Source: Candidatus Magasanikiibacteriota bacterium (lineage in GTDB: Bacteria; Patescibacteriota; Patescibacteriia; Magasanikbacterales; UBA922). Taken from it: a stretch of 64,000 bases of DNA. This document shows positions 12,364-60,497 of this stretch, one piece after another (positions within the stretch are counted from its first letter, which is position 1; every line of letters starts with the position of its first letter). The translations under genes and the position numbers were made by a program. Below the pieces are notes generated by a model. The model saw only the letters and a program-made list of their open reading frames with translations. It was not told where the DNA came from and did not search any database. The stretch covers positions 24,802 to 88,801 of the forward strand of contig JBAQFA010000009.1 in the NCBI GenBank assembly GCA_049287025.1, written 5' to 3'.

Positions 12364-12414
12364 ACACGGATTATACGGAATTAAAGGATTATACGGAAAA
12401 TAAGAAAAATTAAA

Positions 12415-12448
12415 ACACTCTGCTAAATTGGCAGGGTGTTTTTTTTGT
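12415..12448 (+). terminator. Rho-independent terminator after hppA
   Basis: cactctgc-taaattg-gcagggtg + ttttttttg. Confidence 0.6.
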
Positions 12449-12574
12449 TTAACACTTTTTAAATCGTAAACTTGACTTATCATATAAAATATAGTATAAA
12501 TGTATGTCCGATAGACTTGTTGTCTGTCGTTTTGGTATATAAGGCAACTTTGCTTTGTTGTTGTGTGTGCTTGA

Positions 12575-13588
12575 GTGAACAACCATAATCCTTGGATGGG
12601 AGGTGAGACAGGGGAAATGGCAAAGGATCTTTCGGAGAGAAAATTTCGAAGCACCGTGCGGTATGTGCGACGTCTATTGGGGGGTGGGACTGGTATTGTG
12701 ACTGCTCAACAGCTTCAGAAGGCTGGAAAACGAGCTCGCGGTCCTTTCTTTGACCCCAGAGACCATGGTCTGGTTCGTCCGTTCTTGGAGCGTGGAGCCG
12801 AAGAAGGACTCTGGGTGCTTGAGAACGGCGGTGGTCGGGCTGTCGTACCTGATGGTGTGTGGGAACAGTGGGATAGTCGTGGCGAGAGACGGCGTGAGGA
12901 ACGTCAGTCACAAGTTACGGCTCAAGCAGGAACCCGGCCAGCTTCAGTGCTGGCATCACTAGAGGAGGTCTCTATGACCGACGGTACGAAGAAGGGGGTG
13001 GGCGTATCCCCGAAAAATCCTATCTGGGTTTGGCTTCGGGCCAAGAAGGGTAGGTTGGGAGAGCTCATCGAGCTGTTCCAGGGGGTCCATGATGGTGCTC
13101 CGGTTCTCGCCAAGAAGGGTGGGGCTTTGAGTTTCCATTTTGCCCGCCCGCACCTAGTTCGGGGCCTGCAGAAGCTCGGGATGGAGCAGATCGACGATGG
13201 GTCAAAGATCCTGGCCACGGTCTTCTCCTACCTCGCCACGCCTGAGCAGGGGGTATTCGAGCGTGTGGGTTCTGGTGGGTACCCCCGCTACAAGCTCGGG
13301 CCGAAAGGGCAGAAGCTCTTGACCGAGGTCAGGAGCAGGGGCTCTGAGCCCATGCCACCGCCCGTTCCGTCCACGTCACCGACCGCTGCCCCCAGCCCGG
13401 GTGACCCGTTCGCCGAGGAGGAGGCCGCTCTCGTGGCCAAGCTCGAGGCGGTCCGTGCCAAACGCCGGCGCTTCATCGTGGTCGAGGACCTCGTGGTCAA
13501 GGCCATGAAGAAGGCCGGCATCGAGGGGACAGAGCAAGTTGAGTTCCTCAAGGCGCTCGTCAAAAAGCTCGGGGGTTCCTCCGAGTAG
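12575..13588 (+). CDS. GC-rich (about 62% GC) hypothetical protein, apparently horizontally acquired (cassette E)
   Basis: 337-codon open frame in 65% GC DNA is unlikely by chance. The sequence is protein-like (…EAALVAKLEAVRAKRRRFIVVEDLVVKAMKKAGIEG…). Likely start is the ATG at 12617 with RBS gggagg. Confidence 0.5.
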   Translation: MNNHNPWMGGETGEMAKDLSERKFRSTVRYVRRLLGGGTGIVTAQQLQKAGKRARGPFFDPRDHGLVRPFLERGAEEGLWVLENGGGRAVVPDGVWEQWDSRGERRREERQSQVTAQAGTRPASVLASLEEVSMTDGTKKGVGVSPKNPIWVWLRAKKGRLGELIELFQGVHDGAPVLAKKGGALSFHFARPHLVRGLQKLGMEQIDDGSKILATVFSYLATPEQGVFERVGSGGYPRYKLGPKGQKLLTEVRSRGSEPMPPPVPSTSPTAAPSPGDPFAEEEAALVAKLEAVRAKRRRFIVVEDLVVKAMKKAGIEGTEQVEFLKALVKKLGGSSE

Positions 13589-13795
13589 TCAAATCTCTAG
13601 GCAGTCTTGACTGCCTACGACATCGTTCTTTCAACCTGTCCCGTTCGGGACACCAAAGTCAGGGAAGTGAGTATCACTCCACATCGGAGCGTACCTTCCC
13701 TGGCGCTCCATCAAAAGAACATCTCTAGTTAGGTGTTTTTTTGTTTAACATTGATTTTACAGATTTTAAAAAAGATTTTATTTTATAAAAATTAT

Positions 13796-14560
13796 TTATT
13801 TCAAACTGTTCCACAACATCTCCCAAACAAGACGTTGGTTATCAGCATTGGCTTGGTCTTCAATAATGACTAGGATCATACTCTCCCAAGAAACAGTCAT
13901 TACTCGATTGCCATAAATAACAGTGTGACTTTTGAATGATTTACCTTCGGGTAAAAATTTTACTTCACGTAATTCTTCTGTGGCACGTCTAGCTTCTAAA
14001 ATACCGGATTTGGATTTTTCCACAATTATTTTTGCTTTAACCCCTAATGAAATTCGTTCGTTGGTTAATTTTTTATACTCTTCTGGAAAAGTTGTTAATA
14101 GTTTTTCTGATGAACCATATACCAAATTTTCTTTTAGATTTACTTTGTGTCTAATCCTGTCTAGATAAGCATTCCATACATTTTTTCTACCCTCAAAATA
14201 TAATACTTTTGGTTTGTTGGCACCTTTGTTTTGTAAAGCCTCAAGTTCTGGTATTAGATCAGCAAAAAGTTGCTCTTTGTAACGAAGTGAATCCAAAAAT
14301 TTTTCTGGTTCCATGGCCACAAAATATCTTTTTCTGCCTTTGTTAACCACATTCATTAAGCCTTTAAGAATTAATTTTTCTATAATGTCGTATGTAGTTA
14401 CTCTATGTATGCCGGCTTTTTGAGCAATTGTCTGGACTGAAGCATGACCAAGCTCTAAGGTGGCTAAGTAAATTTCGGCCTCTTTGGCATCTAGACCAAA
14501 TTGTTGTAATTGATTAGGTAAAATCATAAAATGTTGTAGGAAAAGTTCTACATTTTTCAT
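13796..14560 (-). CDS. TrmB-family wHTH transcriptional regulator (paralog E)
   Basis: N-terminus EAEIYLATLELGHASVQTIAQKAGIHRVTTYDIIEKLILKGL matches the TrmB HTH. Paralogous to ORFs at 28374, 30255, 31929 and 48975. Confidence 0.7.
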   Translation of the reverse strand: MKNVELFLQHFMILPNQLQQFGLDAKEAEIYLATLELGHASVQTIAQKAGIHRVTTYDIIEKLILKGLMNVVNKGRKRYFVAMEPEKFLDSLRYKEQLFADLIPELEALQNKGANKPKVLYFEGRKNVWNAYLDRIRHKVNLKENLVYGSSEKLLTTFPEEYKKLTNERISLGVKAKIIVEKSKSGILEARRATEELREVKFLPEGKSFKSHTVIYGNRVMTVSWESMILVIIEDQANADNQRLVWEMLWNSLK

Positions 14561-22940: not shown

Positions 22941-23834
22941 TTATTTAGTTTTTGTAAGATAGTATTGCAATGGTGCTAGAATTACATTGGTAGCGACAAT
23001 ATATGCCACGACACCAAGCAAAGCCGTTGAATCAAAACTATTTAGGGCAAGTACCGTTGCCAAACCAGTATTTTTATAAAAATTAGTGATTGACCAGGTA
23101 ATTTTTTCTTCTTTGCTTCGGCCAAATAAATTTCCCAAAATGATTTGGATAATTGCAATCAATAAAATAATTAGTAATGCTATTAAAAAAGAATGATTTT
23201 GCCAGGAAATTAAATAAGCTACTGGCGCTATTCCACCCCAATTAAGCATCGCTACAAAAATGGTATTGGATGATGTAATATATTTTTCCAAAAATTTATT
23301 CCATTTAAAATATTTAATAATTTCTGCCAAAATAATCGGAATAATCACTAACTTAAACACCAACCAAAACATTGATAAAATATTTATATCAATTACTTTG
23401 TGCACAAAAAGCCAGACAGTTGCTGGTATCAAAATTGGTGCTAGTAAATGTGCCAATGTAGTCGTGATTAATGCTTTGGTTGGTTGACCTTTGAAGATTA
23501 TAGAAAAAGCGACTACCGAAATTCCACAAGGTAGAGCAGCCGTTAATATCAGACCGAGATAAATATCTGAATTAAGATGAAGAAATTTTTGACAGAGAAA
23601 AATTAAAAAAGTTGAAAATAAATAAATATTTATTAAAACTAAGACATAACGCCACCAATCATGTTTAAAATTTTTTAGTTCCTTCAAATCAATTTTAAGT
23701 GAACTTAAGGTCATCATGACCATAAGAATTATTGTCAGCCAATTTTTAAATATTAGACCCGGAGCCTGCCAAACATAGCCCAAAATTATTGAGAATAAAA
23801 TTATCAGCCAAAAATATTTTTGTGTAAAATTCAT
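22941..23834 (-). CDS. Polytopic membrane transporter (possibly bile acid:sodium symporter-like fold)
   Basis: 297 aa, about 9 TM helices; family assignment is tentative. Confidence 0.5.
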   Translation of the reverse strand: MNFTQKYFWLIILFSIILGYVWQAPGLIFKNWLTIILMVMMTLSSLKIDLKELKNFKHDWWRYVLVLINIYLFSTFLIFLCQKFLHLNSDIYLGLILTAALPCGISVVAFSIIFKGQPTKALITTTLAHLLAPILIPATVWLFVHKVIDINILSMFWLVFKLVIIPIILAEIIKYFKWNKFLEKYITSSNTIFVAMLNWGGIAPVAYLISWQNHSFLIALLIILLIAIIQIILGNLFGRSKEEKITWSITNFYKNTGLATVLALNSFDSTALLGVVAYIVATNVILAPLQYYLTKTK

Positions 23835-23880: not shown

Positions 23881-23918
23881 AAACAAAAATCCCCCTCTTT
23901 TTTAAAAAAAGAGGGGGA
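23881..23918. terminator. Perfect palindromic terminator
   Basis: aaatccccctcttttttt/aaaaaaagagggggattt. Confidence 0.65.
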
Positions 23919-23932
23919 TTTAGGTAATATAA

Positions 23933-26299
23933 TTATTTTTCTAAGACGGGGTGTTGGCCAAACTGACCACGTAGAGCCGAGACTATTTGGCCAGTATAAT
24001 CTGGATTTTTCTGAGATTGCTTTCTAAATTTGAGTGATTCTTCAATTACTTTGGTCTTTATTTTCATGGCCTTGGCAGTTTTAATGGTCCACTCGCCTTC
24101 TCCAGAATGAGATACTTTACCACTAATTTTTTCTAAATTAGTACCGTAAGTATGAAAGGCTTCATGGAGCCAACCAACCAGACGGGATTCAATTACACTA
24201 CCCTCATTATATATGTCAGCAATGCGGTGTAGATCTAGTTTATAATCAGACTTTTTTAGAACATTAAATCCCTCGCCAATGGCTTGCATCATGCCATACT
24301 CAATTCCATTGTGAATCATTTTTACAAAGTGGCCAGCACCAGCGCCAGAAAAAAACTGATAACCATTCACTTGAGACATGTCTTTAAAAATTGGTTCACA
24401 ATGTTCAAATAATTTTTTCTCCCCGCCGATCATAATGCAGGCGCCATTTCTCGCTCCACCTGGACCACCCGATACCCCAGCATCGAGAAATTTAATACCC
24501 AGCTTTTTTAATTTATTGGCTCGAACAGTCGTATCTTTAAAATATGAATTACCGCCGTCAATAATGATGTCGCCTTTATCTAATTTTTTTACTATTCCTT
24601 CTTTACCAAACAAAGTCTCATCAATTGGTTTGCCATTGGGAAGCATGAGCCAGATAATGCGTGGGCTAGGTAATTTTTTTATCATGTCTTCTAATGAATA
24701 TACCGCGTTCAAATTTTCTTTGGCCATTTGTCTGGTCACTTCAGCGGTGCGATTATAACCAACTACATACCAACCCTTGTCAATTAATCTTCTGGCAAGA
24801 TTGCCACCCATTTTTCCTAAACCAATAATACCAATGCGTTTATTTAGTTTATGTTTTTCTTCTTCTAGAAAATTTTTCGCAGTTTTCGTAATTTCAAAAG
24901 TATCTGGTTTGTAAGTATGGAGTGGAGTTAAATTATTTTTCCAAGCATTAATAATTGGATCAACCACACGCCACATTTGAGCAATTTCGGCATTTCTCAT
25001 AAACCAAGTTTGATTACCAGCAATAGTGTCATGGAGTAATTTGGCGTATTCTTCTACATAGGGCAATTTGGTTTTATTTTTATGCAACATAAAAACAAAT
25101 TCTCGTTTTTCCAATTGCATATCAAAACCAGGTTTTCTTTGCCAAAATTGAATTTTTATTTCTTGCGTGGGGTGAAGTTTAAAAATTATTTTATTTTGCA
25201 CTGGACCAGCCGGTGGGCAAATGCAGGGTTCTGGGTGGCGGAAAGTGACGACAATTTCTTTTTTCACTTGTCCCATCCGTTTGCCACTTTCAATTGTAAT
25301 GGGTACGCCAGTCCAACGCGGTGAATCAAGTTCGGTCTGCCAACGGAAATATGTTTCCACATTAGAATTTTTATTTACCCCAGTAATATTTTTATAACCA
25401 TCATATTGGGCGCGGAAAGTTTTGGTTTTTATATCTTGCAAGCTAGGTTTAATTAATTGTTTCAAAACTTCTGCCCGAGCATTGCGCACTTCTTTGTCAG
25501 TATAGTTAATTGGATGCTCCATAGTTAAGAGCGCGAGAATAGACAGCAAATGGTTTTGTCCGACATCACGCAAAGCCCCGACACTTTCATAAAACGATCC
25601 TCTGGTTTCTACTCCAATTTCCTCCCACAGTTTCATACTAATTCTTTCAATATGCTTGTTGTTCCAAGCGTTTTCAAATAAGCCATTAGAAAAACGGAAA
25701 TTTAATATTCCCTGAACCATTTCTTTACCAAAATAGTGATCAATTCTATAAATTTGTTCACGTTTAAAAACTGATAAAGTTTTTTCTAATTCTTTGGCAG
25801 AGGCACCATCATCACCAAACGGTTTTTCTACAATCACTCTAGCCCAACCAGTACTGTCATCACAGGGCAGATTTAATTTGGTTTCTTTCAATCCCTTGGC
25901 AATCGGTTTGATCATGGCTGGTGGAACAGCTAAGTAATACAATTTGTTAGCACAAATCCCCCATTGATCCTGAATATTTTGAATGTGGCTTTTTAATTCA
26001 GTATAATCTTGCAATTGGGAAAAATCGCCTTGTTCATAATGAAAGAGTTTTAAAAATTTTTCAATTGGTTGTCGGGTTTTAACAAATTCTTTTTCTTTTA
26101 AAATATTAAAAACATGGGTTCTAAATTCTTCATCACTCATTGCTCGGCGGGCAAATCCTAAGACATCAAAATGAACTGGAAGTTTTTTTTGTTTGTATAA
26201 AAAATATAATGAAGGGACAATTTTTTTTGTCATAAGGTCGCCAGTGGCACCAAAAACAGTAAAAATTGTTGGAACATTATCAAAGTATGGTTGTTTCAT
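23933..26299 (-). CDS. zwf-gnd: Fused glucose-6-phosphate dehydrogenase (N) and 6-phosphogluconate dehydrogenase, decarboxylating (C)
   Basis: N-terminal FGATGDL and IDHYFGKE G6PD motifs. C-terminal about 300 aa carries IGIIGLGKMGGNLARRL Rossmann and ...GAGHFVKMIHNGIEYGMMQ 6PGD motifs. Single 788-aa frame. Confidence 0.8.
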   Translation of the reverse strand: MKQPYFDNVPTIFTVFGATGDLMTKKIVPSLYFLYKQKKLPVHFDVLGFARRAMSDEEFRTHVFNILKEKEFVKTRQPIEKFLKLFHYEQGDFSQLQDYTELKSHIQNIQDQWGICANKLYYLAVPPAMIKPIAKGLKETKLNLPCDDSTGWARVIVEKPFGDDGASAKELEKTLSVFKREQIYRIDHYFGKEMVQGILNFRFSNGLFENAWNNKHIERISMKLWEEIGVETRGSFYESVGALRDVGQNHLLSILALLTMEHPINYTDKEVRNARAEVLKQLIKPSLQDIKTKTFRAQYDGYKNITGVNKNSNVETYFRWQTELDSPRWTGVPITIESGKRMGQVKKEIVVTFRHPEPCICPPAGPVQNKIIFKLHPTQEIKIQFWQRKPGFDMQLEKREFVFMLHKNKTKLPYVEEYAKLLHDTIAGNQTWFMRNAEIAQMWRVVDPIINAWKNNLTPLHTYKPDTFEITKTAKNFLEEEKHKLNKRIGIIGLGKMGGNLARRLIDKGWYVVGYNRTAEVTRQMAKENLNAVYSLEDMIKKLPSPRIIWLMLPNGKPIDETLFGKEGIVKKLDKGDIIIDGGNSYFKDTTVRANKLKKLGIKFLDAGVSGGPGGARNGACIMIGGEKKLFEHCEPIFKDMSQVNGYQFFSGAGAGHFVKMIHNGIEYGMMQAIGEGFNVLKKSDYKLDLHRIADIYNEGSVIESRLVGWLHEAFHTYGTNLEKISGKVSHSGEGEWTIKTAKAMKIKTKVIEESLKFRKQSQKNPDYTGQIVSALRGQFGQHPVLEK

Positions 26300-26542
26300 A
26301 AATTAGTAATTAGGTTTTAGTAAAACATTCTAATATGGTATGTAATATTATACTTTTATTTTTATCTACAATCAATATGTGGATATGGCATTAGTTGTCC
26401 TTACTTTTTGTAACCAATCCCGATTTTATCGGGACAAACAGTTTCGCCCCCGGACCCCCTTGGTGAGTTTGCTTGGTTTTAATTAATAATAAACCTTACA
26501 AGGTTTATTATGTGTTTCGTGGTTTGTGGTTTGTGGTTTGTG

Positions 26543-27505
26543 TTATTCTACAATTGCTTTCATTTCTTTATTAAATACAGCACTAGCTCGTTTCATGTAA
26601 TCTTCTATATTATCAGCAAAGTATGGTGGATATTGACTTTGAATTTTTCCAATTACATAATAGACTACTGCCATGAGAGTGGCATAGTTGGCATTATTTG
26701 GTAATGGGAAATACAGACGATTTTTTTCTAAGCCGTAATGTTTGTTTTCAATACCAAAACTAATAAATAATTCCGTGTCAGACATAACAACATTTTTGGC
26801 GTGCATACTTTGATCTATAGTAAAAACCCTGCCAGACACTTTTGGTTGAAGGAGTTCATCAAACTTGGTTAAAAACATGTCGCGTATAGCATCAAACCTA
26901 CTCTCAACTAAAATATAGTAAGAATCAAACTTGGAAAAATTGTTAGGGATTAAAGGGTTAATTTTTGTTTTTAAAAAATTATAAATATCTTCAGCGCTTT
27001 CTCCAGTATGTCCTATGATCATCCCCATATAAGTGCTCGTGTTGTAAGTATAAGGTTCTTTGTTTTTCGGAAAGACAAATACTTTGTCGTCATCCAAATA
27101 TTCTTTGGCTGGAGCTTTTGGATTGTTTGTTAGGAGTCTGGTTTCAATATTTTTTTCTTTAAAAAATCTGGCCATCTCAATGGCATGTTTGTCACCAGAA
27201 GCCGAAATCAAAATTATTCCATCAATTCCTTTTATATTCTCAAATTTTTGTTTATAGTCACTCTCATTGGCAAGTATGGCATCACTATTTTCAAATAATA
27301 TTTTGCCAGTAAAAAAAGCATTCACACTACCCACTACCATTGGTCTTTTGTAATTACCCAGATTAAGCTTTGGTACACCTTGAGAGATGAATAATTCTAG
27401 TGCTCCCATGACTGCTACATCTAAATTCGGAATATTTTTTAAAGTAAAATTTTGCATGGTTTGTAAATTTGTCATATTTCTATATTTATTATTTAACCCT
27501 ACCAT
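26543..27505 (-). CDS. Hypothetical protein; very weak resemblance to the NagB/Pgl (6-phosphogluconolactonase) superfamily
   Basis: 320 aa; segment GMIIGHTGESAEDI faintly resembles the LGMGEDGHTASLFP Pgl motif; adjacent to zwf-gnd; likely start MTNLQTMQ. Confidence 0.45.
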   Translation of the reverse strand: MVGLNNKYRNMTNLQTMQNFTLKNIPNLDVAVMGALELFISQGVPKLNLGNYKRPMVVGSVNAFFTGKILFENSDAILANESDYKQKFENIKGIDGIILISASGDKHAIEMARFFKEKNIETRLLTNNPKAPAKEYLDDDKVFVFPKNKEPYTYNTSTYMGMIIGHTGESAEDIYNFLKTKINPLIPNNFSKFDSYYILVESRFDAIRDMFLTKFDELLQPKVSGRVFTIDQSMHAKNVVMSDTELFISFGIENKHYGLEKNRLYFPLPNNANYATLMAVVYYVIGKIQSQYPPYFADNIEDYMKRASAVFNKEMKAIVE

Positions 27506-28373: not shown

Positions 28374-29123
28374 TTATTTTATCTCTGGGCAATGATCCCA
28401 CATAAATTTAAACCAGGTTTTATAGCTAGTGGCCAGTGGACGACTAATATTTACAAAAATGGTAATATCGTCACTAATCTTTGTTATTCCGGCGCCAGTA
28501 AAAGACACAACATGATCACCAAAAATGTCTACCATTGAAGGCGTAGAATATTCTTTAGGTAGGTATTTGTAAGGTTTACCTACGGCTTTTGGTACATGAG
28601 GAGCTTGTTTTAGTACTTCAAAATCAAATAAATGTTTATATTTAATACCTCGACGATCCGCATCAACTAAAAATTTATCCAAAAAGGTATTGAGTCTTGG
28701 GTCGAACCAGGCTCCCTTGGCGCCAATACAATAAACATCTTCTTTAGTAGATAATACATCACGAAGAAAATTTTTAAATCCTTCCAGACCTTTATATATG
28801 TAGGCAGCCTCTAAAACAGGATGTTTTTGGTATTCGTGCATCAAGTGTGGCATTTCTTTTTCTAGCCTAGTACGTTTTTCATCAACCAGTTCCATTAGCT
28901 TGGCTGGTTCCACTGGTTTAAATAAAGTGTCGCCATGCCCAATAACTTGAAACACTAAACCTTTTTCAATTAAGCGATTCATTGAGTCATAAATATTCCG
29001 GCGATGAATTTTACTTTTTTTTGAAATATTAGAAACCGTAGTTTGTTTTTCTTGTAAAAGTGTTTCGTAAATTTTGGCTTCGTTTATTGACAATCCTAGT
29101 TCTGTTAAAATTTGGCTATACAT
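28374..29123 (-). CDS. TrmB-family wHTH transcriptional regulator (paralog A)
   Basis: N-terminus NEAKIYETLLQEKQTTVSNISKKSKIHRRNIYDSMNRLIEKGLV; C-terminal TrmB-like domain. Confidence 0.7.
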   Translation of the reverse strand: MYSQILTELGLSINEAKIYETLLQEKQTTVSNISKKSKIHRRNIYDSMNRLIEKGLVFQVIGHGDTLFKPVEPAKLMELVDEKRTRLEKEMPHLMHEYQKHPVLEAAYIYKGLEGFKNFLRDVLSTKEDVYCIGAKGAWFDPRLNTFLDKFLVDADRRGIKYKHLFDFEVLKQAPHVPKAVGKPYKYLPKEYSTPSMVDIFGDHVVSFTGAGITKISDDITIFVNISRPLATSYKTWFKFMWDHCPEIK

Positions 29124-29296
29124 AGCAAAAATATATTAAAGTGGTGTGAAGCCACACCACGTGGTGGTATTTGCCACTCTTTATATATTATATATAATGC
29201 CTTGTTACTTTGCAAGCCGCTGCTGTGCATAAAAGCTAGATGGTGAGCGGGTAATAAGGGGTTCTTTGATAAAACAATTTGAGAAGCGAGGGACAA

Positions 29297-29479
29297 ATGG
29301 AAACTGGAGAAAGGCAAGATGAAGTTACTTGTTTGAAGAAAGAGTTGGAACATGACAAAGATGAGATATATTATTTGCGTTTGGCTATCCTTAATTTGAA
29401 TAGGAAAAAGGAGTATGTCAGAATGCAAAGGATGTTCCGTGGTGGAGAAGCTGTTCTCGACATGTGGGCGCGCTATTAA
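29297..29479 (+). CDS. Small GC-rich ORF (60 aa) in leader of cassette A
   Basis: ATG at 29297 preceded by gagggacaa; METGERQDEVTCLKKELEHDKDEIYYLRL...; weak. Confidence 0.25.
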   Translation: METGERQDEVTCLKKELEHDKDEIYYLRLAILNLNRKKEYVRMQRMFRGGEAVLDMWARY

Positions 29480-29515
29480 CACGGGAGAGGGCTGAAAAAG
29501 CCTAAGGAGGACCTC

Positions 29516-30103
29516 ATGCGTACAATGTTAGTCGCGTTGCTGTCGCTGGTGCTGTTTTCAAGTATTGCTCAGGCCGAAACCTACAACACCAGGTTGCTCC
29601 TGCACGGTCACAAGACCGTCGGTGAGGGATTCGGAGTCGCGGGTTGGGTGATTGCGCCCAACATCACAAGCGTACCGAACAAGTGGGTAACCCTCGTCGG
29701 CCCGTGCTACGATGGACAGGGGTGGGGTGTAGAATTGTTGGCAGGAGCGGTTGTTTCTGGTGGCGAGAGCAAGTTTCTTGTAGATGTCAGAATAACGTTC
29801 ACTCCAAAATTCTTCGGCATCCCCTTGAACACCTGGCACAACTTCCAGTGGATTCGAACCGGAGGCTCTGGCACGGGTTACTGGTATGGACAGGTTGACT
29901 GGGTGTTGCCACTCGGACTTGGACTTCTCGGTACAGAAACCGAGAACACGTTCAACGTGAGTGGCAATGACTGGTCAGTCGCGCCTCACGTCGTGATCTC
30001 TTTCGGTGATCACTTCGCGCTAGTGTTCGCTCCACAAGCTCATTTCAATGCACGTGGCTACACTGGCACGCAAGCGTGGGTTCGTACGGTCGTGAGTCAC
30101 TAG
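29516..30103 (+). CDS. GC-rich secreted hypothetical protein (cassette A)
   Basis: RBS aaggagg; signal peptide MRTMLVALLSLVLFSSIAQA; about 58% GC versus about 33% background. Confidence 0.6.
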   Translation: MRTMLVALLSLVLFSSIAQAETYNTRLLLHGHKTVGEGFGVAGWVIAPNITSVPNKWVTLVGPCYDGQGWGVELLAGAVVSGGESKFLVDVRITFTPKFFGIPLNTWHNFQWIRTGGSGTGYWYGQVDWVLPLGLGLLGTETENTFNVSGNDWSVAPHVVISFGDHFALVFAPQAHFNARGYTGTQAWVRTVVSH

Positions 30104-30175
30104 TCGTTCTTTTATAGGGGGGAGGACTTACTTGAGACTAGTCATCTCACGTGGACCGGCACGTAAAAATCCGGG

Positions 30176-30235
30176 ATTCTAGTTAGTACTAAGTAGATAT
30201 CAAAAAACCACGCCTCATCGGCGGGTTTTTTGTTT
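30176..30235 (+). repeat. About 60-bp direct repeat (copy 1) containing terminator, 3' of cassette A and abutting TrmB paralog B
   Basis: attctagttagtactaagtagatatcaaaaaaccacgcctcatcggcgggttttttgttt; second copy at 31849-31909. Confidence 0.7.
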
Positions 30236-30254
30236 ACTTTGGGTAATTTATGAT

Positions 30255-31049
30255 TTATTTTTTCTTTTTGGCAAGTTGAGAGAGTGGTACGGCCGTATTC
30301 CAAGCTAGTTCATATAGCGCTTTTAGAATTTTTACCAAAGATGTACTTTCTATCATTACACCAATTTTGTGTGGTTTATGAGTGACGAAGACAATTTTTG
30401 ATTCAAAAATATTAATTTCACCAAAAAAGTCCTCAATTCCTGGTAGTTGATTAGGTTTAAGCCATTTAATATGAGTATAAGTCATTGATCCTTTATAATT
30501 CGTCATCCAAGTTCTAGCTGTAGGTGTATCCAAAGCAATAATACGTTCATGAATTTTACGTTTACTGCGTTCACGATTATAGCCTTCACCCCAAGTTTTG
30601 AATTCCGGCCAACTCCAGCCTTCAAAATCGGCAATAGAAAGAATTTCGGTTTTTGAATCTAAGCTCTCCCAATAAATATTTTTTAAACCCTGGGTACCTT
30701 CTTGATATTTGATAACTGGCTTTTCGGCAAACTTATAAATCGAAAATAATTTTGGTAAAACTTTTTCTACATTTAATAATTTATCTTCCCATTGCTTTTT
30801 TTTGTTTTTAATATGTTGAACCAGACGCCCTGGATTTTCCGAAGTATAAATCATTTTCGATCCTTTGCCAGTCGCGCGATCTACCAAACCATACCAACCT
30901 AACTTTTCCAAAGCATAATAACCAAGCGTTCGGTTGATACCAGCTTTTTTGGTTATCTCGGCTACAGTAGCAGGACCAAGTTCGAGCAAGGCTAAATATA
31001 CTTTGCCTTCGGTTTCATCTAAACCTAATTGACTGATTAAATCTTTCAT
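30255..31049 (-). CDS. TrmB-family wHTH transcriptional regulator (paralog B)
   Basis: GKVYLALLELGPATVAEITKKAGINRTLGYYALEKLGWYGLV; about 50% identical to paralog C. Confidence 0.75.
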   Translation of the reverse strand: MKDLISQLGLDETEGKVYLALLELGPATVAEITKKAGINRTLGYYALEKLGWYGLVDRATGKGSKMIYTSENPGRLVQHIKNKKKQWEDKLLNVEKVLPKLFSIYKFAEKPVIKYQEGTQGLKNIYWESLDSKTEILSIADFEGWSWPEFKTWGEGYNRERSKRKIHERIIALDTPTARTWMTNYKGSMTYTHIKWLKPNQLPGIEDFFGEINIFESKIVFVTHKPHKIGVMIESTSLVKILKALYELAWNTAVPLSQLAKKKK

Positions 31050-31301
31050 GTTTTTATTCTACTATATATTTGGAAATGTGTCAAATCTATTTAACAGAAA
31101 ATTATTTATATAGCAAAATACTTTATAATTAGCCAAATATTAATAATTAACTAATAAAACAATATTGACAGTTATTGTAAAATGTGGAATAATAAGTAGT
31201 TCTAGAATGAAAATTCTGGAACCAAATTGATTGGGAGTGTCTGAACACTCTGTATATATGGTCTGGCGTTCTTTACACACGTGCTAGTTGGAGGGAACAT
31301 C

Positions 31302-31727
31302 ATGAAAAGGTGCATCAAGGCTCCGGGAATTAACGCTTTCAGTGGCGAGGGTGAAGTGGGGAAGTTAGAAGATGTCCCCGGAAAACAAGGTTGCCTTCCA
31401 TTTGATCCTAGTCCGGCCGTAGGGGGTTGGATGAAGGACGACAATTGTAAAGTGGAGGCACCACCAGAGGGGTGCACGCTCGAAGTGCCCGAAACGATCC
31501 TATGCCCCAATGGAAAAAACATCCCAGCTGGAAAGTACAAGGTGGGAAAACTGCCTGATGACAAGATTCTGCATCGCTATCATGATCACGTTCTGCCCCT
31601 CACCGATGAGAAGGGGGTCACCCGGCATTATTGCATTGAAAGTTCCGGTAGGCATGTCGACTGGTCGGGATGCGTCTGCATCTTGATTCGTGTGGAGACG
31701 CGCGAAGAGCGACTGCTGATTCAGTAG
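31302..31727 (+). CDS. GC-rich Cys-rich small protein (cassette B)
   Basis: RBS ggaggga before ATG 31302 (track start 31281); 10 Cys in 141 aa. Confidence 0.55.
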   Translation: MKRCIKAPGINAFSGEGEVGKLEDVPGKQGCLPFDPSPAVGGWMKDDNCKVEAPPEGCTLEVPETILCPNGKNIPAGKYKVGKLPDDKILHRYHDHVLPLTDEKGVTRHYCIESSGRHVDWSGCVCILIRVETREERLLIQ

Positions 31728-31747
31728 CCATAAATTAAGGGGGGCAA

Positions 31748-31818
31748 GACGTAGTCTGGATTCGTCAACCAGTCCACCTGCCGGAGAGGTAGGCGTAGGC
31801 CGGCGCGTGAGCTCGGCA
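31748..31818 (+). repeat. Cassette 3' element: AGACGTARTCTGRATTCGTCAAYCA ... core GCGTAGGCCGGCGCGTGAGCTCGGCA
   Basis: Core at 31793-31818; 21 nt after the stop of cassette B ORF; four more copies in the window. Confidence 0.8.
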
Positions 31819-31848
31819 CCGTGCGCCCGACACATTCAAAACGGGCAA

Positions 31849-31909
31849 ATTCTAGTTAGTACTAAGTAGATAACAAAAAACCACGCCCTATCAGCGCGGT
31901 TTTTTGTTT
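31849..31909 (+). repeat. About 60-bp direct repeat (copy 2) with terminator, abutting TrmB paralog C
   Basis: aattctagttagtactaagtagataacaaaaaaccacgccctatcagcgcggttttttgttt. Confidence 0.7.
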
Positions 31910-31928
31910 GTTTTGAATAATTTATAAA

Positions 31929-32732
31929 TTATTTTTTCTTTTTACTAGTTTTAGCAAGCGGTGTAGCTGTAATCCACGCCAGTTCAAAAATCGCTTTTAA
32001 AATATTAGATAAAGCCGTGCTTTCTATAATTATGCCAATAGGGATTGGTTTCTTGAATAAAGCCATCATTACTTTATTATCATAAATATTAATTTCACCA
32101 CCTAAATCTTTGATAGTTGGTACTTGTTCGGGTTTTATCCAGCGATAATTAATATATTTTTTTGATCCTTGATAATGTTTCATCCAATCTCTTCCTTCGG
32201 GTGTATCTAAAACCAAAACGCGTTCAGAAATTTTTCTTTTACTACGTTCGCGGGTATATTCTTTGCCCCATTTAAAAAGATTAAACTCTGGTGTATACCA
32301 AGCTTGCAAATCCAAGACTGATAAAATTTCTGATTTGGCTTCTAAAGTTTCCCAATAAATATTTTTGGCACCCTCAACACCTTCTTGAAATCTAACGCTG
32401 GGTTTTTCGGCCACGGTATAGAGTAAATAAAAATCTGGCAATTGTGATTCTAATTCTTTTTCTTTTCTTTCCCAAGTATTAATTTTTGATTTTACAAAAT
32501 GTTTTAAATTTTTGGGATCTTTGGCTACAAATTGAATGCGTTTCTTTTGTCCAGAAGAACGATTGACTAGGCCAAACCAACCAAGTTTTTCTAGGGCATG
32601 ATAACAAAGGGTGTGACCAATGCCAGCTTTGCGGGCAATGGCGCTGGCGCCAGAAGGTCCAAGTTGTAAAAGGGCAATATAGACTTTGGCTTCTGTTTCT
32701 TCAAAGCCAATGCTTTTAAGAATTTCTAACAT
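31929..32732 (-). CDS. TrmB-family wHTH transcriptional regulator (paralog C)
   Basis: AKVYIALLQLGPSGASAIARKAGIGHTLCYHALEKLGWFGLV; ends KKKK like paralog B. Confidence 0.75.
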   Translation of the reverse strand: MLEILKSIGFEETEAKVYIALLQLGPSGASAIARKAGIGHTLCYHALEKLGWFGLVNRSSGQKKRIQFVAKDPKNLKHFVKSKINTWERKEKELESQLPDFYLLYTVAEKPSVRFQEGVEGAKNIYWETLEAKSEILSVLDLQAWYTPEFNLFKWGKEYTRERSKRKISERVLVLDTPEGRDWMKHYQGSKKYINYRWIKPEQVPTIKDLGGEINIYDNKVMMALFKKPIPIGIIIESTALSNILKAIFELAWITATPLAKTSKKKK

Positions 32733-32963
32733 AGAATTTTATTTTAGAATTTATTAGATATATTTATTATAACACAAAAATAAATTTATTTCAATATCAA
32801 ATTGAAAATAATTACTAGATTGTAAATTTTTATTTAAAATAAGCCAAAAATGGTTTATTTATTTTAAATTGAGTATTGACATACTCCATAATCTAATGCA
32901 TAATTACTTGTTCTGACGATCGAGGATTGGCCTTGAGAGTTGGACGCTAACTGGGAGGGCATC

Positions 32964-33311
32964 ATGGCCGAAGAGCACGAGGTACGGTGTGATAACTGCG
33001 CCCACCACCACGTAGGAAGCGGGGGTTGTTTCGGCAAAGTAGAGAGCAGGTTCCCCATGTACGATTTTCATAGAGGAGTAAAATACTGCATGTGGGGGGG
33101 GACCCCCAGCCGAATTGTGACCTTTTCTAGATTGAAGGGGTGCCCGCTGGGTGTGGAGTTTGTGCCACTCCGCTGGTGTGGTACCTGTGGCAACTTGGTC
33201 CAAACGGACCAAGGGTGTGCTCACCGGTTGGAGGGTTGCGAGGACCCCAGCTACAGGTGCTGGAAGATTCACCCCGACCTCAAGGAGGGTATGAGACAAC
33301 AGTACCTCTAG
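32964..33311 (+). CDS. GC-rich Cys/His-rich small protein (cassette C1), putative zinc-binding
   Basis: sigma70-like promoter ttgaca-17-cataat at 32876-32904; RBS gggaggg; CDNCAHHH...CxxC motifs. Confidence 0.55.
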   Translation: MAEEHEVRCDNCAHHHVGSGGCFGKVESRFPMYDFHRGVKYCMWGGTPSRIVTFSRLKGCPLGVEFVPLRWCGTCGNLVQTDQGCAHRLEGCEDPSYRCWKIHPDLKEGMRQQYL

Positions 33312-33335
33312 ACTACCCACCTATGGGTTAAACAG

Positions 33336-33444
33336 GCGTAGGCCGACGCGTGAGCTCGGCATTCCATTTTTGTCCAAAATATTATTTTTTGCATAAAGAT
33401 GGAGGCGCTCTTTAAAAACAAACAATCCGCACTGGTGGTGTTGG
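33336..33444 (+). repeat. Cassette 3' core motif (33336-33361) plus about 85-bp conserved leader repeat
   Basis: gcgtaggccgacgcgtgagctcggca + attccatttttgt...ataaagatgg...cgctctttaaaaacaaacaa...cactggtggtgttggttg; near-identical to 34186-34292. Confidence 0.8.
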
Positions 33445-33480
33445 TTGAAGAGATATAGTTCTGACTTAACGGAGGCTAGA

Positions 33481-34149
33481 ATGGGATACGACCCAAACCA
33501 AATGGCCCAAAGGTATTTGAGGGTCGACTGGGCCGACGTGAAGGGCTATGCCGCTTACGCGGTAGAGTCCACGTTCGGGGACCAAGTACCACCACCCATA
33601 AAAAGGAGACTCGAGGTATTGGACGGTATAAGGGACAAGGAAGGTCCCGAAGCCGCCTGTCTCGAGGCAGCAAGGATCGAATGTGAATGCCAAGTCGTTC
33701 AGGAGAAAAGAACTGAACGACGGCAGTGGAGAACGGGAGACGACCCATACAAATATGGGTCTTCGTTCTCTTCGAAGTTTGTCATCATAGATTATAATGG
33801 TGAAAAAAGATTCTACATCGCTCATAATTGGCATATGCAGGCCGTTTTCGTTTTCGCCAAAATTCTGGTGGATAGAAATAAAAAAGTCGATTTTCACGTT
33901 CTGGGTGGGGGGTGGTTCCGTGCTAATCATCCCCTAACTGTTGGCGGTTTTAGCGGTGATTTTAGCTCGTTCAAAATCTCTGACTTGAGTGAGGCGTTGG
34001 GTGGGCTTGAATTCACCGACAAAGATCCCGGTGATTGGCGCACGAATTCCATGCGTGCCACCCATATTGATTGGGCTTTTATCGAAAAAGCCCGTGACTC
34101 CTCTGAGAAATACAGGGAGGTATGGAAACGGATCTTTGAGGAGGAATAA
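33481..34149 (+). CDS. GC-rich hypothetical protein (cassette C2)
   Basis: RBS ggaggct + ATG 33481 (track used TTG 33445); 222 aa; about 50% GC. Confidence 0.55.
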   Translation: MGYDPNQMAQRYLRVDWADVKGYAAYAVESTFGDQVPPPIKRRLEVLDGIRDKEGPEAACLEAARIECECQVVQEKRTERRQWRTGDDPYKYGSSFSSKFVIIDYNGEKRFYIAHNWHMQAVFVFAKILVDRNKKVDFHVLGGGWFRANHPLTVGGFSGDFSSFKISDLSEALGGLEFTDKDPGDWRTNSMRATHIDWAFIEKARDSSEKYREVWKRIFEEE

Positions 34150-34150
34150 T

Positions 34151-34292
34151 AGACGTAATCTGATTTCGTCAATCAGCGTAGGCCGGCGCGTTAGCTCGGC
34201 ATTCCATCTTTGTATAAAAATAATTTTATATAAAGATGGTTGTCGCTCTTTAAAAACAAACAACTAACACTGGTGGTGTTGGTTGGTGATAT
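34151..34292 (+). repeat. Cassette 3' element (core 34186-34211) plus leader repeat, second copy
   Basis: agacgtaatctgatttcgtcaatca gcgtaggccggcgcgttagctcggca + attccatctttgt...cactggtggtgttggttg. Confidence 0.8.
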
Positions 34293-34339
34293 ATAAAAAG
34301 GACTGGTGGCGGACACAACCCTTGGAGAAGGAGTTGAAA

Positions 34340-34759
34340 ATGAGTACTGTCAAGATACTCATCATCGACGACGGTGATGAGAAAGTCGATCGACTGAAAG
34401 GTTATGATCGACTTGGCCACCTCCATGGTGTGGAGGTGGTACGCCGATGGAATTTTAATTCGGCTCTTAAGGAAGGGCCGTACGCGTTTAATGATTTGGA
34501 GCAAACAAAGTTTGACGTGATTATTTTGGACTTTACACTGCCAATGGACAGATTCGGTCATGAGATCTTGGATAAAATTAGACACAGTCCCAGGTTTATT
34601 ATTAACGAAAGAACGGTAGTAATTGGCATTTCCACAGAGTGGAAACGTCTATTACAATATGATTTCGGTTTGAATCTTGCGATCTACAAGGAGGAAACGA
34701 TGGCTGACGAACTGGAAACAGCCATCAAGTCCTTCGTCGCCACTGGCAAAGTCAAATAA
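34340..34759 (+). CDS. Orphan CheY-like response-regulator receiver domain protein (cassette C3)
   Basis: RBS gagaaggag + ATG 34340. KILIIDDGDE...DVIILDFTLP matches the REC-domain acidic pocket and phospho-acceptor Asp. No output domain. Confidence 0.55.
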   Translation: MSTVKILIIDDGDEKVDRLKGYDRLGHLHGVEVVRRWNFNSALKEGPYAFNDLEQTKFDVIILDFTLPMDRFGHEILDKIRHSPRFIINERTVVIGISTEWKRLLQYDFGLNLAIYKEETMADELETAIKSFVATGKVK

Positions 34760-34780
34760 TTTGGGGAGGGAAAGACGAAG

Positions 34781-34824
34781 CTTGGGATTTGTCACCCAAC
34801 GTAGGCCGGCGCGTGAGCTCGGCA
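34781..34824 (+). repeat. Cassette 3' element, fourth + strand copy
   Basis: agacgaagcttgggatttgtcacccaa cgtaggccggcgcgtgagctcggca, 22 nt after stop of C3. Confidence 0.75.
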
Positions 34825-48974: not shown

Positions 48975-49763
48975 ATGGAAAAAAATAATTTAGAAAAATT
49001 AATAGATTTGGGTCTACAAGAAAATGAAGCCAAAATATATTTGGCTTTGTTGGAATTGGGAAAAGGCAATGTGACCGAAATTAGTCGGCGCGCAGGATTG
49101 AACCGGACGACGGGTTATGATATTTTGGAACGTCTTGGTTTACATGGTATGGTGAACCGCGCCAGAGTGGGTAGTAAAAAAATTATTTATGTGGCCGAAC
49201 CGCCATCACATTTGCGTCAGTACTTGGAAGACAAAAAACGCGCCATGGAAAGACGGATGGAAGAATTAAATGATTTGTTGCCAGATTTGCAATCACTTTA
49301 TAAAACTGATATTAAACCAGTTATAAAATTTGCCGAAGGGAAAAGTGAAATGCAAAAATTGTATTTGAATGTTTTGGATGCGAAGAGTGAAGTTTATTCA
49401 ATTCTTAATTTAAAAGGTTATGCCGAAGTTTTTGATGAACTGGGTGCTTATCAATCCAAAGAACGACATAAAAAAGGCATAAAAGAAAAAGTTTTGGCTA
49501 TAAAAAATGATACCGCTCTGTGGTGGTATAATAAAACTTATAAAAATAAAACTGCCAAGGATAAAAAGTTAACCGAATATCGCTGGCTAGAAGATGCGGA
49601 AAAGTATTCTACCGCCGGAGAAGTAAATATTTTTGATGATAAAGTAATTGGTGTATTATCCAAACCAAGTGAAAATGTGGCATTTGAAATTCAATCACAG
49701 ACATTTGCGGATTTTTTGAAATTAGTTTTTGAAATGGCGTGGAAGAATAGTGAACAAAAATAA
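48975..49763 (+). CDS. TrmB-family wHTH transcriptional regulator (paralog D)
   Basis: NEAKIYLALLELGKGNVTEISRRAGLNRTTGYDILERLGLHGMV; C-terminal domain like paralogs B/C. Confidence 0.75.
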   Translation: MEKNNLEKLIDLGLQENEAKIYLALLELGKGNVTEISRRAGLNRTTGYDILERLGLHGMVNRARVGSKKIIYVAEPPSHLRQYLEDKKRAMERRMEELNDLLPDLQSLYKTDIKPVIKFAEGKSEMQKLYLNVLDAKSEVYSILNLKGYAEVFDELGAYQSKERHKKGIKEKVLAIKNDTALWWYNKTYKNKTAKDKKLTEYRWLEDAEKYSTAGEVNIFDDKVIGVLSKPSENVAFEIQSQTFADFLKLVFEMAWKNSEQK

Positions 49764-60442: not shown

Positions 60443-60497
60443 ACCTTCGGCCTCCTGGTCCCAAACCAGGCGCTCTAGCCAACTGAGCTACACCCCG
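60424..60497 (-). tRNA. tRNA-Pro (anticodon UGG)
   Basis: CGGGGUG acceptor, anticodon loop UUUGGGA, T-arm GAAGGTTCAAGTCCTTT. Confidence 0.8.

Follow-up and report, generated by a model that had tools for sequence, protein, structure and literature searches.

[quoted passage not shown] In GluPho of Plasmodium, in the fusions of Giardia and Trichomonas and in metazoan H6PD the partner is 6-phosphogluconolactonase (6PGL, or Pgl), such that the consecutive steps 1 and 2 are carried by one chain, and these proteins are often annotated just as G6PD. The combination of steps 1 and 3, where G6PD is joined to 6-phosphogluconate dehydrogenase (6PGD, 6PGDH or Gnd), has been described in the diatom Phaeodactylum tricornutum (Stover et al. 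2011, PMC3148214), with G6PD at the N-terminus and 6PGD at the C-terminus, as the product of adjacent same-frame genes 39 nt apart without an intervening stop codon. This eukaryotic fusion is lineage-restricted and its annotation is disputed. Finally, a single sentence published in 2024 records that the two enzymes are fused in one DPANN archaeon and in 60 assemblies of candidate phyla (PMC11237513). Residues, linker, cofactor, origin and gene neighbourhood are not analysed there, and the SIS partner described below goes unmentioned; beyond that sentence, nothing was found in the literature on a CPR Zwf-Gnd enzyme or on any SIS-family protein that has been characterised.

The window analysed here, a stretch of 64,000 nucleotides from a Candidatus Magasanikiibacteriota bacterium, encodes a protein that shares both architecture and family with the fusions recorded in 2024 (Table 1). 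Like the diatom protein it has G6PD at its N-terminus and combines steps 1 and 3, without a lactonase domain, but its 6PGDH is of the short-chain type (about 300 residues), and the diatom fusion presumably represents an independent event. Fusion of these two steps had been called uncommon, which holds across life as a whole but not within CPR bacteria, where the fused form is the usual one and, being already in print, is not new.

Table 1. Coordinates of the features of the zwf-gnd locus within the window
Feature	Position	Strand	Remarks
Intrinsic terminator	23887..23921	-	Directly after the fusion stop codon; 16-bp stem (6 G-C pairs), 3-nt loop, T-run
Zwf-Gnd fusion CDS	23933..26299	-	788 aa plus stop; single ORF, four Pfam domains, two full-length NCBIfam equivalog matches above cut-off
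Short-chain 6PGDH (Gnd) module	23933..24838	-	Residues 488-788 plus stop; TIGR00872 and NF007161 over full length
Inter-module linker	24839..24862	-	Residues about 480-487; low pLDDT, length constrained
G6PD (Zwf) module	24863..26299	-	Residues 1-479; TIGR00871 match, PDB relatives, invariant motifs
Promoter-like site (weak evidence)	26347..26375	-	TTGATT-17-TATAAT, 10/12 matches; within the 243 bp between the fusion and the gene upstream of it
Predicted double-SIS-fold protein, uncharacterised CPR/DPANN family	26543..27475	-	310 aa; candidate PGI-like hexose-6-phosphate isomerase

The original prediction, that a single polypeptide carries G6PD over about its first 480 residues and a short-type 6PGD over about its last 300, is borne out by alignment with the family models. 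Judged from its sequence, the 788-residue ORF is a true in-frame G6PD-6PGDH fusion, whose two domains are intact in one frame and each match an equivalog model over its full length with a score above the curated cut-off. The Pfam domains run in the order G6PD_N (residues 15-196), G6PD_C (200-483), NAD_binding_2 (488-643) and 6PGD (656-765), and the motifs that had been picked out are all found in the translated ORF, namely FGATGDL (16-22) and IDHYFGKE (186-193) in the Zwf half and the Rossmann segment IGIIGLGKMGGN (489-500) and catalytic segment GAGHFVKMIHNGIEYG (654-669) in the Gnd half. For the Zwf module, the NCBIfam zwf model TIGR00871 covers residues 11-485 (model positions 3-483 of 486) with 442.8 bits against a cut-off of 400.6, the Pfam domains PF00479 and PF02781 are both complete, and the nearest PDB relatives are G6PDs (E 6e-78). 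The motifs that mark a G6PD, GxxGDL, EKPxG, RIDHYxGKE and the catalytic His of D-x-x-Q-N-H, are all present and align with the structures of the L. mesenteroides and cyanobacterial enzymes, and across 120 fused homologues GATGDL, EKPFG, DHY-K192, QNH250 and G339-K340 vary little or not at all. The module is well folded in the AF2 model, where its last helix spans residues 469-479, and by full-length model and motifs alike it is a predicted G6PD.

The C-terminal part likewise matches 6PGD profiles above their cut-offs, TIGR00872 over residues 488-785 (336.9 bits, cut-off 297.2) and NF007161 with 352.9 bits (cut-off 271), both from NCBIfam. It scores below the cut-offs of the long-chain models NF006765 and TIGR00873 and, at about 300 residues, is without the long C-terminal domain of the 470-residue Gnd. 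Its nearest PDB relatives are short-chain 6PGDHs of 332-358 residues (6xeq/10gw, 6vpb, 8ihe, which is labelled 'Gnd2, NAD+-dependent', and 4e21), which it resembles over its full length and in every catalytic and 6-phosphogluconate-binding motif: the catalytic Lys and Glu of GxGHxVKMxHNGIEY, together with the substrate-binding N-S, SGG, GEGxW and R..S. Across 120 homologues the residues G493-L-G, N584-S585, S610-G-G, H657, K660, H663, N664 and E667 are invariant, as are G733-E-G-x-W737, R759 and S762.

What distinguishes the module from the known short-chain enzymes, apart from its G6PD tether, is a motif of the NADP type. In the alignment N516-R517-T518 stands where three of the structures (6xeq/10gw, 6vpb and 8ihe) have an Asp, and among the homologues position 516 is N in 108 of 120, position 517 is R in 93 and position 518 is T or S in 108. 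In long-chain 6PGDH, N-R-T forms the site for the 2'-phosphate. The replacement of the Asp by this triad leads to the prediction that the Gnd module prefers NADP+ over NAD+, although the name of TIGR00872 implies NAD+.

Could the fusion nonetheless be a product of sequencing, assembly or a frameshift, or one of its halves a decayed pseudo-domain? Unfused zwf->gnd pairs do exist, in one CPR genome (L010) and one Mycobacterium MAG (L012) among the matches listed, but all four domains are found in every one of the best 120 database homologues, which are 52-79% identical and come from samples and assemblers independent of one another; these homologues belong to many CPR phyla, save for one (P0095) labelled as a Diapherotrites archaeon. 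The linker is variable in sequence but constrained in length (35-44 residues between W453 and G493 in 116 of the 120), and catalytic residues are invariant in both halves. The junction itself, which had been placed at 24860-24900 and so close to where the linker lies, contains no stop codon and no nearby alternative start codon; 97 of the 120 homologues have Lys at position 487, just ahead of the Rossmann strand of Gnd, and a residual start codon is absent. The lone internal segment with a pLDDT below 50 in the AF2 model is residues 480-483. The recurrence of the architecture in independent assemblies excludes an artefact without the need for read coverage, and as far as sequence can show this reading, whose probability is negligible, is already refuted. 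One ORF, the Zwf-Gnd order, occurrence in independent genomes and a conserved junction mark the protein as a member of a CPR/DPANN fusion family. Its origin most likely lies in an adjacent, same-frame zwf->gnd pair that lost its stop codons, and in the unfused CPR locus L010 the two genes are adjacent in the same frame, 12 nt apart.

The neighbouring gene, upstream of the fusion, was at first read as a 320-residue ORF (26543-27505). That ORF is present, with a permitted start at 27505, but translation probably begins at the ATG at 27475, where the deposited annotation and the homologues also have their start. No Pfam or NCBIfam family matches the protein at E <= 0.01, nor does a sequence model of any known type of phosphoglucose isomerase (PGI; PF00342, the PGI/PMI model TIGR02128 and the cupin PF06560). 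The SIS model PF01380 gives no match for the window protein and weak matches in 12 of 31 family members (best E 3e-6), with a precomputed match on two database members; a profile of the family searched against PDB sequences reaches SIS proteins with an E no better than about 0.13, and no match to E. coli GlmS came out of hhalign. With similarity too remote for sequence methods, the assignment of the fold rests on the structure model and the order of the motifs. From these the protein is confidently predicted to be a double-SIS protein, composed of two SIS alpha/beta domains, and not to have the alpha/beta fold of NagB/Pgl. Weak Pfam matches to the HAD family 'Hydrolase_6' in 21 of the 31 members cover one beta-alpha-beta unit only (84-128), conflict with the fold of the chain as a whole and are taken as local resemblance.

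The closest structures are Lmo0035, the GlmS isomerase domains, the GlcN6P deaminases of P. furiosus and T. maritima, NagB-II (GlmD) and FrlB, with PGI and PGI/PMI as more distant relatives. The neighbour has their two-SIS fold and three loops for binding phosphate, as well as a K-x-x-E...K-H pattern and, at the C-terminus, a conserved tail, here -P-I-V-E, resembling -SVTVE of GlmS. Within the family GS-N, SASG-K, E-PYTYN-TST, K204-x-x-E207 and K224-H225 show little or no variation, and they follow one another as in residues 300-504 of E. coli GlmS, with similar spacing, a correspondence of motif order and not of superposition. On the other hand, identity to the known double-SIS enzymes is 13% or less, no sequence model of theirs matches the window protein significantly, and the family has an invariant EPYTYNTSTY loop of its own and a distinct gene neighbourhood (zwf/gnd, tal and ROK). 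The Schiff-base Lys is also not conserved: the tail position that matches K603 of E. coli GlmS, the Lys that forms the Schiff base with fructose-6-phosphate (F6P), is Lys in only 44 of 120 members and N, S or T in most others.

The hunch that this neighbour is tied to zwf/gnd was well founded. Across 61 loci the SIS family is repeatedly and strongly linked to zwf/gnd, with Zwf, Gnd and transaldolase (Tal) as its dominant enzymatic partners, and its links to zwf/gnd, transaldolase and ROK sugar kinase genes are robust to rearrangement. A profile search of genome contigs with the fusion returned, among the matches listed, mostly non-CPR gnd->zwf operons, and these served as a control for cluster composition, not as a census of fusions. 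Such non-CPR matches include tal-pgi-gnd-zwf-pgl clusters and bifunctional Tal-PGI proteins, in which the same pathway genes are brought together. In the CPR, by contrast, zwf stands before gnd and is usually fused to it, the SIS family replaces the canonical pgi, most often directly after tal just as pgi is placed in the standard clusters, and the cluster has no pgl. Canonical Pgl, whether NagB-type or YbhE-type, was found neither in the window nor in about 1 Mb of CPR loci, and is present in at least about 34 non-CPR zwf-cluster loci among the matches listed; likewise, among the loci listed, an E. coli NagB probe detects Pgl-type ORFs in non-CPR loci and nothing in those of the CPR.

What, then, does the SIS-family protein do? 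Most likely it acts as an isomerase of glucose-6-phosphate (G6P) and F6P rather than as a lactone hydrolase. The original prediction held that it might be the missing 6-phosphogluconolactonase, on the strength of a faint NagB/Pgl-like motif. The string in question, GHTGESAEDI, is indeed there and lies in a helix that follows a SIS-type phosphate loop, but the protein corresponds to no Pfam or NCBIfam family, PF01182 included (no match in any of the 31 members at E <= 1). Kinship with Pgl or NagB-I thus fails in both sequence and fold, and the invariant residues of this double-SIS protein follow the pattern of GlmS/PGI-type isomerases. A lactonase on a new fold, hydrolysing the delta-lactone made by Zwf for use by Gnd, is in turn very unlikely. 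SIS folds such as PGI and GlmS bind six-carbon phosphosugars and carry His and Lys residues that open the ring, the SIS family is the sole conserved unannotated member of CPR clusters that lack canonical Pgl, one locus (L128) has the order Zwf->SIS->Gnd, and in E. coli the loss of Pgl is reportedly not compensated by spontaneous intracellular hydrolysis. Yet the fold and the K-x-x-E...K-H set are of the aldose-ketose isomerase type, and we know of no precedent for a SIS-fold lactonase. In addition, the usual position directly after transaldolase is that of PGI, a ROK kinase gene lies beside the SIS gene in 16 of the 61 loci, 14 of them without zwf/gnd within 4 kb, and the family extends to archaea labelled Woese- and Pacearchaeota, though the oxidative PPP is described as rare in archaea. 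Such a lactonase, if real, would bring a new fold to EC 3.1.1.31, would be a dedicated and previously unrecognised oxidative-PPP enzyme of the CPR and DPANN, and would explain the canonical Pgl missing from CPR clusters.

An amino-sugar enzyme of the GlmS-isomerase type, be it a NagB-II/GlmD-like GlcN6P deaminase, an ammonia-dependent GlcN6P synthase or a deglycase, would make or use F6P and be linked to the PPP only indirectly. The list of closest structures, the parallels to the GlmS motifs and tail, and ROK neighbours that could be GlcNAc kinases are all consistent with this idea, but it is unlikely given the poor conservation of the K603-equivalent Lys, the lack of NagA or other amino-sugar genes among the recurrent neighbours, the prominence of Zwf, Gnd and Tal as partners and the presence of a canonical full-length GlmS elsewhere in at least one CPR genome (L003). 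A non-catalytic sensor of phosphosugars that regulates Zwf-Gnd, in a role like that of OpcA or the SIS-fold glucokinase regulatory protein, is hardly to be expected: the catalytic-type Glu/His/Lys set and all three phosphate loops are strictly invariant in 120 members, and the family is found at a distance from zwf too, next to ROK or on its own. It is reasonably probable that the SIS family represents a fourth, non-orthologous type of PGI, which would fill the distribution of PGI reported as patchy in the CPR.

Taken as a whole, an explanation in which a bifunctional Zwf-Gnd works beside a non-orthologous PGI of the SIS family is the one towards which we lean. In this scheme the N-terminal module would convert glucose-6-phosphate to 6-phosphoglucono-delta-lactone, which would have to hydrolyse spontaneously or through an enzyme encoded elsewhere, and the C-terminal module, held by a flexible linker of about eight residues, would oxidatively decarboxylate 6-phosphogluconate to ribulose-5-phosphate and CO2. 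Each step should yield one NAD(P)H, with NADPH predicted from the signatures R51 and N516-R517-T518. Since a further step of the pathway lies between these reactions, the fusion probably ensures that both modules are expressed 1:1 and assembled together in a streamlined genome, rather than channelling substrate directly. The SIS neighbour as PGI would return the F6P formed by transaldolase to Zwf-Gnd, and would link kinase-made G6P to glycolysis.

The fusion is under-annotated in databases: a protein from a Candidatus Magasanikiibacteriota MAG that is 100% identical carries, as its sole annotation, glucose-6-phosphate dehydrogenase, and CPR pathway surveys that use single-function names could miss the 6PGDH. 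The neighbour family, large, highly conserved and entirely unannotated in the CPR and DPANN, now has a confidently predicted fold, invariant active-site-like residues and a gene linkage. Two steps are missing from the central carbon metabolism of the CPR, those of PGI and the lactonase, and the family is a sharply testable candidate for one of them, the lactonase being the less likely. Should it prove to be an analogue of PGI, many CPR reconstructions would owe their seeming gaps in upper glycolysis and the cyclic oxidative PPP to annotation, and in these minimal cells kinase, isomerase, Tal and Zwf-Gnd would form a compact module for the production of NADPH and pentoses from scavenged sugars.

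Elsewhere in the window, a GC-rich island at 12.4-13.6 kb matched nothing in Rfam at E <= 0.1 and nothing in Pfam. Promoter-like sites are not above chance in this AT-rich region (36 found, 30 expected). Terminator-like sites number 10 in the region, where 4.4 are expected by chance, and none is stronger than the terminator of the fusion gene.

The interest of this locus lies in the testable candidate function of the family to which the gene upstream of the Zwf-Gnd fusion belongs, and not in the fusion itself. Reading the 788-aa protein as a fusion is correct but not novel, since earlier accounts of fused G6PD-6PGD have been published, such as that of Phaeodactylum, described in 2011 and then said to be unique in nr (PMC3148214). 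A literature search found neither a biochemical or structural study of the fusion nor a paper on the neighbouring family. What is new here is the anatomy of the fusion, its likely precursor arrangement, a cofactor prediction and, above all, the placing of the neighbour in a SIS-fold family that is conserved, carries no annotation and is linked to the oxidative pentose-phosphate pathway (PPP).

The original prediction of a single Zwf-Gnd polypeptide is borne out, and every motif quoted for it is found in the sequence. Four Pfam domains follow one another in one frame (G6PD_N, residues 15-196; G6PD_C, 200-483; NAD_binding_2, 488-643; 6PGD, 656-765), and both modules are intact, with full-length NCBIfam matches above cut-off for the zwf equivalog (residues 11-485; 442.8 bits against 400.6) and for short-chain 6PGDH (residues 488-785; TIGR00872, 336.9 against 297.2; NF007161, 352.9 against 271). 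The junction DNA (...AKNFLEEEKHKLNKRIGIIGLGKMGGN...) reads continuously without a stop codon and contains no separate Gnd start (ATG, GTG or TTG). In the AlphaFold model (mean pLDDT 86) the modules are well folded, and the sole internal low-confidence segment, 480-483, separates the helix that ends Zwf (469-479) from the strand that opens Gnd (488-492); with a pTM of 0.60, the model does not fix how the modules are oriented to each other. A promoter-like hexamer pair is present in the 243-bp gap 5' of the gene, where such pairs are not above chance for the region.

Searching ~5.8 billion proteins gave 6360 relatives, of which the best 120 are 52-79% identical and 682-836 aa long (median 792), a lone 682-aa entry covering just 86% of the query, and all four domains are present in 120/120. 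Their source samples, the assemblers used and the CPR lineages are all diverse (Magasanik-, Buchanan-, Peregrini-, Harrison-, Levy-, Portnoy-, Kaiser- and Taylorbacteria, Parcubacteria); one comes from a 'Diapherotrites archaeon'. Invariant or nearly so among them are the Zwf motifs GATGDL, EKPFG, DHY, K192, Q-N-H250 and G339-K340, and the Gnd residues G493-L-G, N584-S585, S610-G-G, H657, K660, H663, N664, E667, G733-E-G-x-W737, R759 and S762. The linker varies in sequence and is constrained in length, with 35-44 residues from W453 to G493 in 116/120, and a Lys takes the place of the ancestral Gnd start region in 97/120. The fusions form one compact family and not many independent fusions: a junction-spanning query (residues 400-600) matched across the junction in only ~25 of 1.84 billion cluster representatives. 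The identical database record (P0001) is named 'glucose-6-phosphate dehydrogenase' only, and most fused homologues that have a name are likewise called after one half; the Gnd half is therefore invisible to name-based pathway surveys. A further fused gene, 47% identical to the window protein, lies on a contig binned as 'uncultured Gammaproteobacteria' (L009); unless this CPR-like contig was mis-binned, the gene would be a rare non-CPR fusion.

How might such a fusion have arisen, and what would it do? In non-CPR bacteria (species-representative genomes, among the matches listed) zwf and gnd are separate, mostly in the order gnd(short)->zwf. In one Moraniibacteriota genome, zwf->gnd are separate, in the same frame and 12 nt apart (VRKH*RIK*MTLGYIGLGKMG), and at 44% identity to the window protein they fall outside the 52-79% fused family. 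This is likely the type of arrangement that would give the fusion once the stop codons were lost, although it may instead reflect secondary fission of a fused gene. The closest solved structures to the Gnd module are the short-chain 6PGDHs 6xeq/10gw, 6vpb, 8ihe and 4e21; the three shown aligned, 6xeq/10gw, 6vpb and 8ihe, have an Asp where the window protein has N516-R517-T518, and N516 is Asn in 108/120 homologues. Since the N-R-T motif binds the 2'-phosphate in long-chain 6PGDH, we infer that the Gnd module prefers NADP+, even though TIGR00872 is named 'NAD+-dependent'. The Zwf module retains the Arg of the G-x-A/S-R motif (R51, 110/120), which would be compatible with NADP+. The polypeptide keeps the active-site residues of both G6PD and 6PGDH, contains no further domain, and would turn G6P into Ru5P and CO2 with two NAD(P)H, given lactone hydrolysis in between. 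Because step 3 does not directly follow step 1, direct channelling is unlikely; a more plausible benefit for a reduced genome would be that the two enzymes are always made 1:1 and assembled together.

Features of the window and of comparison loci from other genomes and metagenomes (L numbers)
Feature	Locus	Positions	Strand	Remarks
DnaN	window	723-1865
DnaA	window	2145-3527
GC-rich island	window	12364-13795		GC 0.49 vs ~0.35 for window
337-aa ORF in island	window	12575-13588		GTG start; Gly/Arg/Pro-rich
TrmB-family regulators (five)	window	13796-14560; 28374-29123; 30255-31049; 31929-32732; 48975-49763		sugar-type
BASS/SBF-family transporter	window	22941-23834	-	PF01758, E 5e-15; weak PanS-like NCBIfam match; between fusion and YchF
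Intrinsic terminator	window	23921-23887		strong; 16-bp stem + T-run; after fusion stop codon
Zwf-Gnd fusion	window	23933-26299	-	788 aa, single ORF
Neighbour ORF	window	26543-27505	-	320 aa, longest start
Raised-GC region	window	29000-34800		GC ~0.41; many overlapping ORFs on both strands
Large serine recombinase	window	58805-60698		Resolvase + Recombinase + Zn_ribbon_recom; positions include the tRNA cluster
Three-tRNA cluster	window	60424-60698	-	recombinase ends inside or next to it
Fused Zwf-Gnd	L009	1-2427
YjeF_N protein	L090	12371-13078
YjeF_N protein	L001	5702-6379
YjeF_N protein	L002	1809-2486
YjeF_N protein	L148	8764-9561
HAD-like hydrolase	L170	8290-8976		229 aa; PF13242, E 3e-5
LOG-type protein	L094	4225-4995
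LOG-type protein	L007	5234-5980

The neighbour has no match in Pfam or NCBIfam. Homologues and the deposited annotation indicate a probable start at 27475 (310 aa). The family has at least 881 members of ~296-320 aa, almost all without a name or called 'hypothetical'; they occur in CPR bacteria and also in archaea that bear the labels Woese- and Pacearchaeota. The AlphaFold model, a double SIS fold, is confident (pLDDT 94.8, pTM 0.93). An alignment of 31 sequences, confirmed on 120, has the invariant blocks G49-S-x-N52, S91-A-S-G-x-K96, E140-P-Y-T-Y-N-T-S-T-Y149, K204-F-x-E207, K224-H225-A, E235-x-F and a C-terminal -P-I-V-E tail. These follow the same order, with similar spacing, as CGTS303, S347QSGET352, E396-IGVASTK, K485-L-K-E488 and K503-H504 of E. 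coli GlmS, a correspondence of motif order and not of superposition, with the GlmS positions verified. A Lys corresponding to the Schiff-base K603 of GlmS is present in just 44/120 members. Phosphate loops, a Glu base and a His/Lys ring-opening pair without a Schiff-base Lys form the pattern that would be expected of a plain aldose-ketose isomerase.

A functional link of the family to the oxidative PPP is strongly supported by gene order. The window order SIS->ZwfGnd->YchF is repeated in a second Magasanikbacteria genome, and in a Nomurabacteria genome ZwfGnd->Tal->SIS are closely packed, with 23 and 3 bp between the genes (Tal, transaldolase). Elsewhere, a 70% identical neighbour homologue adjoins YchF directly, with no fusion between, and different genes adjoin the fusion in a complete CPR genome, in Peregrinibacteria and in further loci. 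A metagenome scan gave 80 loci, 61 non-redundant at 90% identity, with the arrangements SIS->ZwfGnd, ZwfGnd->SIS, ZwfGnd->Tal->SIS(->ROK), Tal->SIS->Zwf->HAD-like->Gnd, Tal->SIS...Zwf->Gnd, Zwf->SIS->Gnd and LOG->SIS->ROK. Within 4 kb on the same strand, Zwf occurs in 15 of the 61, Gnd in 16, the sugar kinase family ROK in 16 and Tal in 11; at least one is present in 34/61, and in 19/27 of those whose flanks reach 3 kb or more on each side. Excluding Zwf and Gnd, a Pfam census of two genes on each side counted ROK 15, LOG-type 15, TAL_FSA 8 and NUDIX 8, and neither PGI (phosphoglucose isomerase) nor Pgl (6-phosphogluconolactonase) was among the 25 most frequent families.

As a control, the gnd-zwf loci of non-CPR bacteria were probed with E. 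coli Pgi and NagB. Among the matches listed, the Pgi probe placed a PGI-like ORF just before gnd in ~20 loci, of which 6 are single Tal-PGI ORFs and at least 5 have Tal directly upstream of PGI, and the NagB probe placed a Pgl-type ORF just after zwf in ~34. The standard order is therefore tal-pgi-gnd-zwf-pgl. In CPR loci neither probe found anything, and Tal there almost always immediately precedes the SIS gene; the SIS family thus occupies the slot of PGI. This slot, the PGI fold class, the isomerase-type invariant residues and the pairing with a sugar kinase where zwf is not nearby together make the neighbour probably a PGI-like enzyme. According to Jaffe et al. (2020), PGI has a patchy distribution in CPR, is absent from some lineages and occurs as three unrelated types in scattered parts of the radiation; a fourth type would fit this picture.

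An amino-sugar isomerase or deaminase, as the GlmS-like motif order might suggest, is unlikely given the scarcity of the Schiff-base Lys. The original prediction was that the neighbour, with its faint NagB/Pgl-like motif GHTGESAEDI, could be the missing lactonase; this string sits in a helix after the third phosphate loop and is unrelated to Pgl/NagB. Neither sequence nor fold supports the lactonase reading, and a SIS-fold lactonase is quite improbable, although the Pgl slot of CPR clusters stays empty and one locus (L128), with the order Zwf->SIS->Gnd, leaves this reading some chance. Less probable still is a non-catalytic regulator, against the isomerase-type residues. A Pfam scan of ~46 ORFs, taking in all non-nested ORFs of 100 aa or more in the 64-kb window, detected no Pgl of either known type. 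Seven other loci likewise had none in the 8-10 kb around the fusion, and E. coli NagB and YbhE probes found none in ~1 Mb of CPR loci. Work on E. coli (bioRxiv 10.1101/2023.11.29.569206) argues that spontaneous hydrolysis of the lactone inside the cell does not suffice.

Several minor observations concern the surrounding genes. The HAD-like protein of L170, encoded between separate zwf and gnd genes (order Tal->SIS->Zwf->HAD->Gnd), may act as a beta-phosphoglucomutase or else as a phosphatase of sugar phosphates. LOG-type (Lysine_decarbox/LDcluster4) genes recur beside the SIS family (L094, L007 and ~15 metagenome loci), as do NUDIX genes in 8 loci; some proteins of both types free ribose-5-phosphate from nucleotides, and such a neighbourhood would be consistent with nucleotide salvage feeding the PPP. 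YjeF_N proteins (NAD(P)HX epimerase family) lie near Zwf-Gnd or zwf in several CPR loci, in L090 starting 1 nt after the stop codon of the fusion, and might couple the repair of NAD(P)H hydrates to NADPH production. The BASS/SBF transporter looks like a local insertion, because in a related Magasanikbacteria locus (L089) YchF directly follows ZwfGnd.

The window is low in GC (~35%) and begins near a replication origin; across the fusion and neighbour genes it matches a 148.6-kb contig from a Candidatus Magasanikiibacteriota MAG without any difference. Upstream of the SIS gene, past a tRNA cluster and at a distance of ~900 bp, is the second of its TrmB genes, and TrmB genes are also near the SIS family in L008 and L093. 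The raised-GC region has few Pfam matches, namely two TrmB genes and a weak response-regulator match. The GC-rich island, whose ORF has no Pfam match and which gave no Rfam match at E <= 0.1, may be foreign DNA. Several small ORFs without Pfam matches precede the large serine recombinase, which together with its tRNA cluster suggests the edge of an integrated element.
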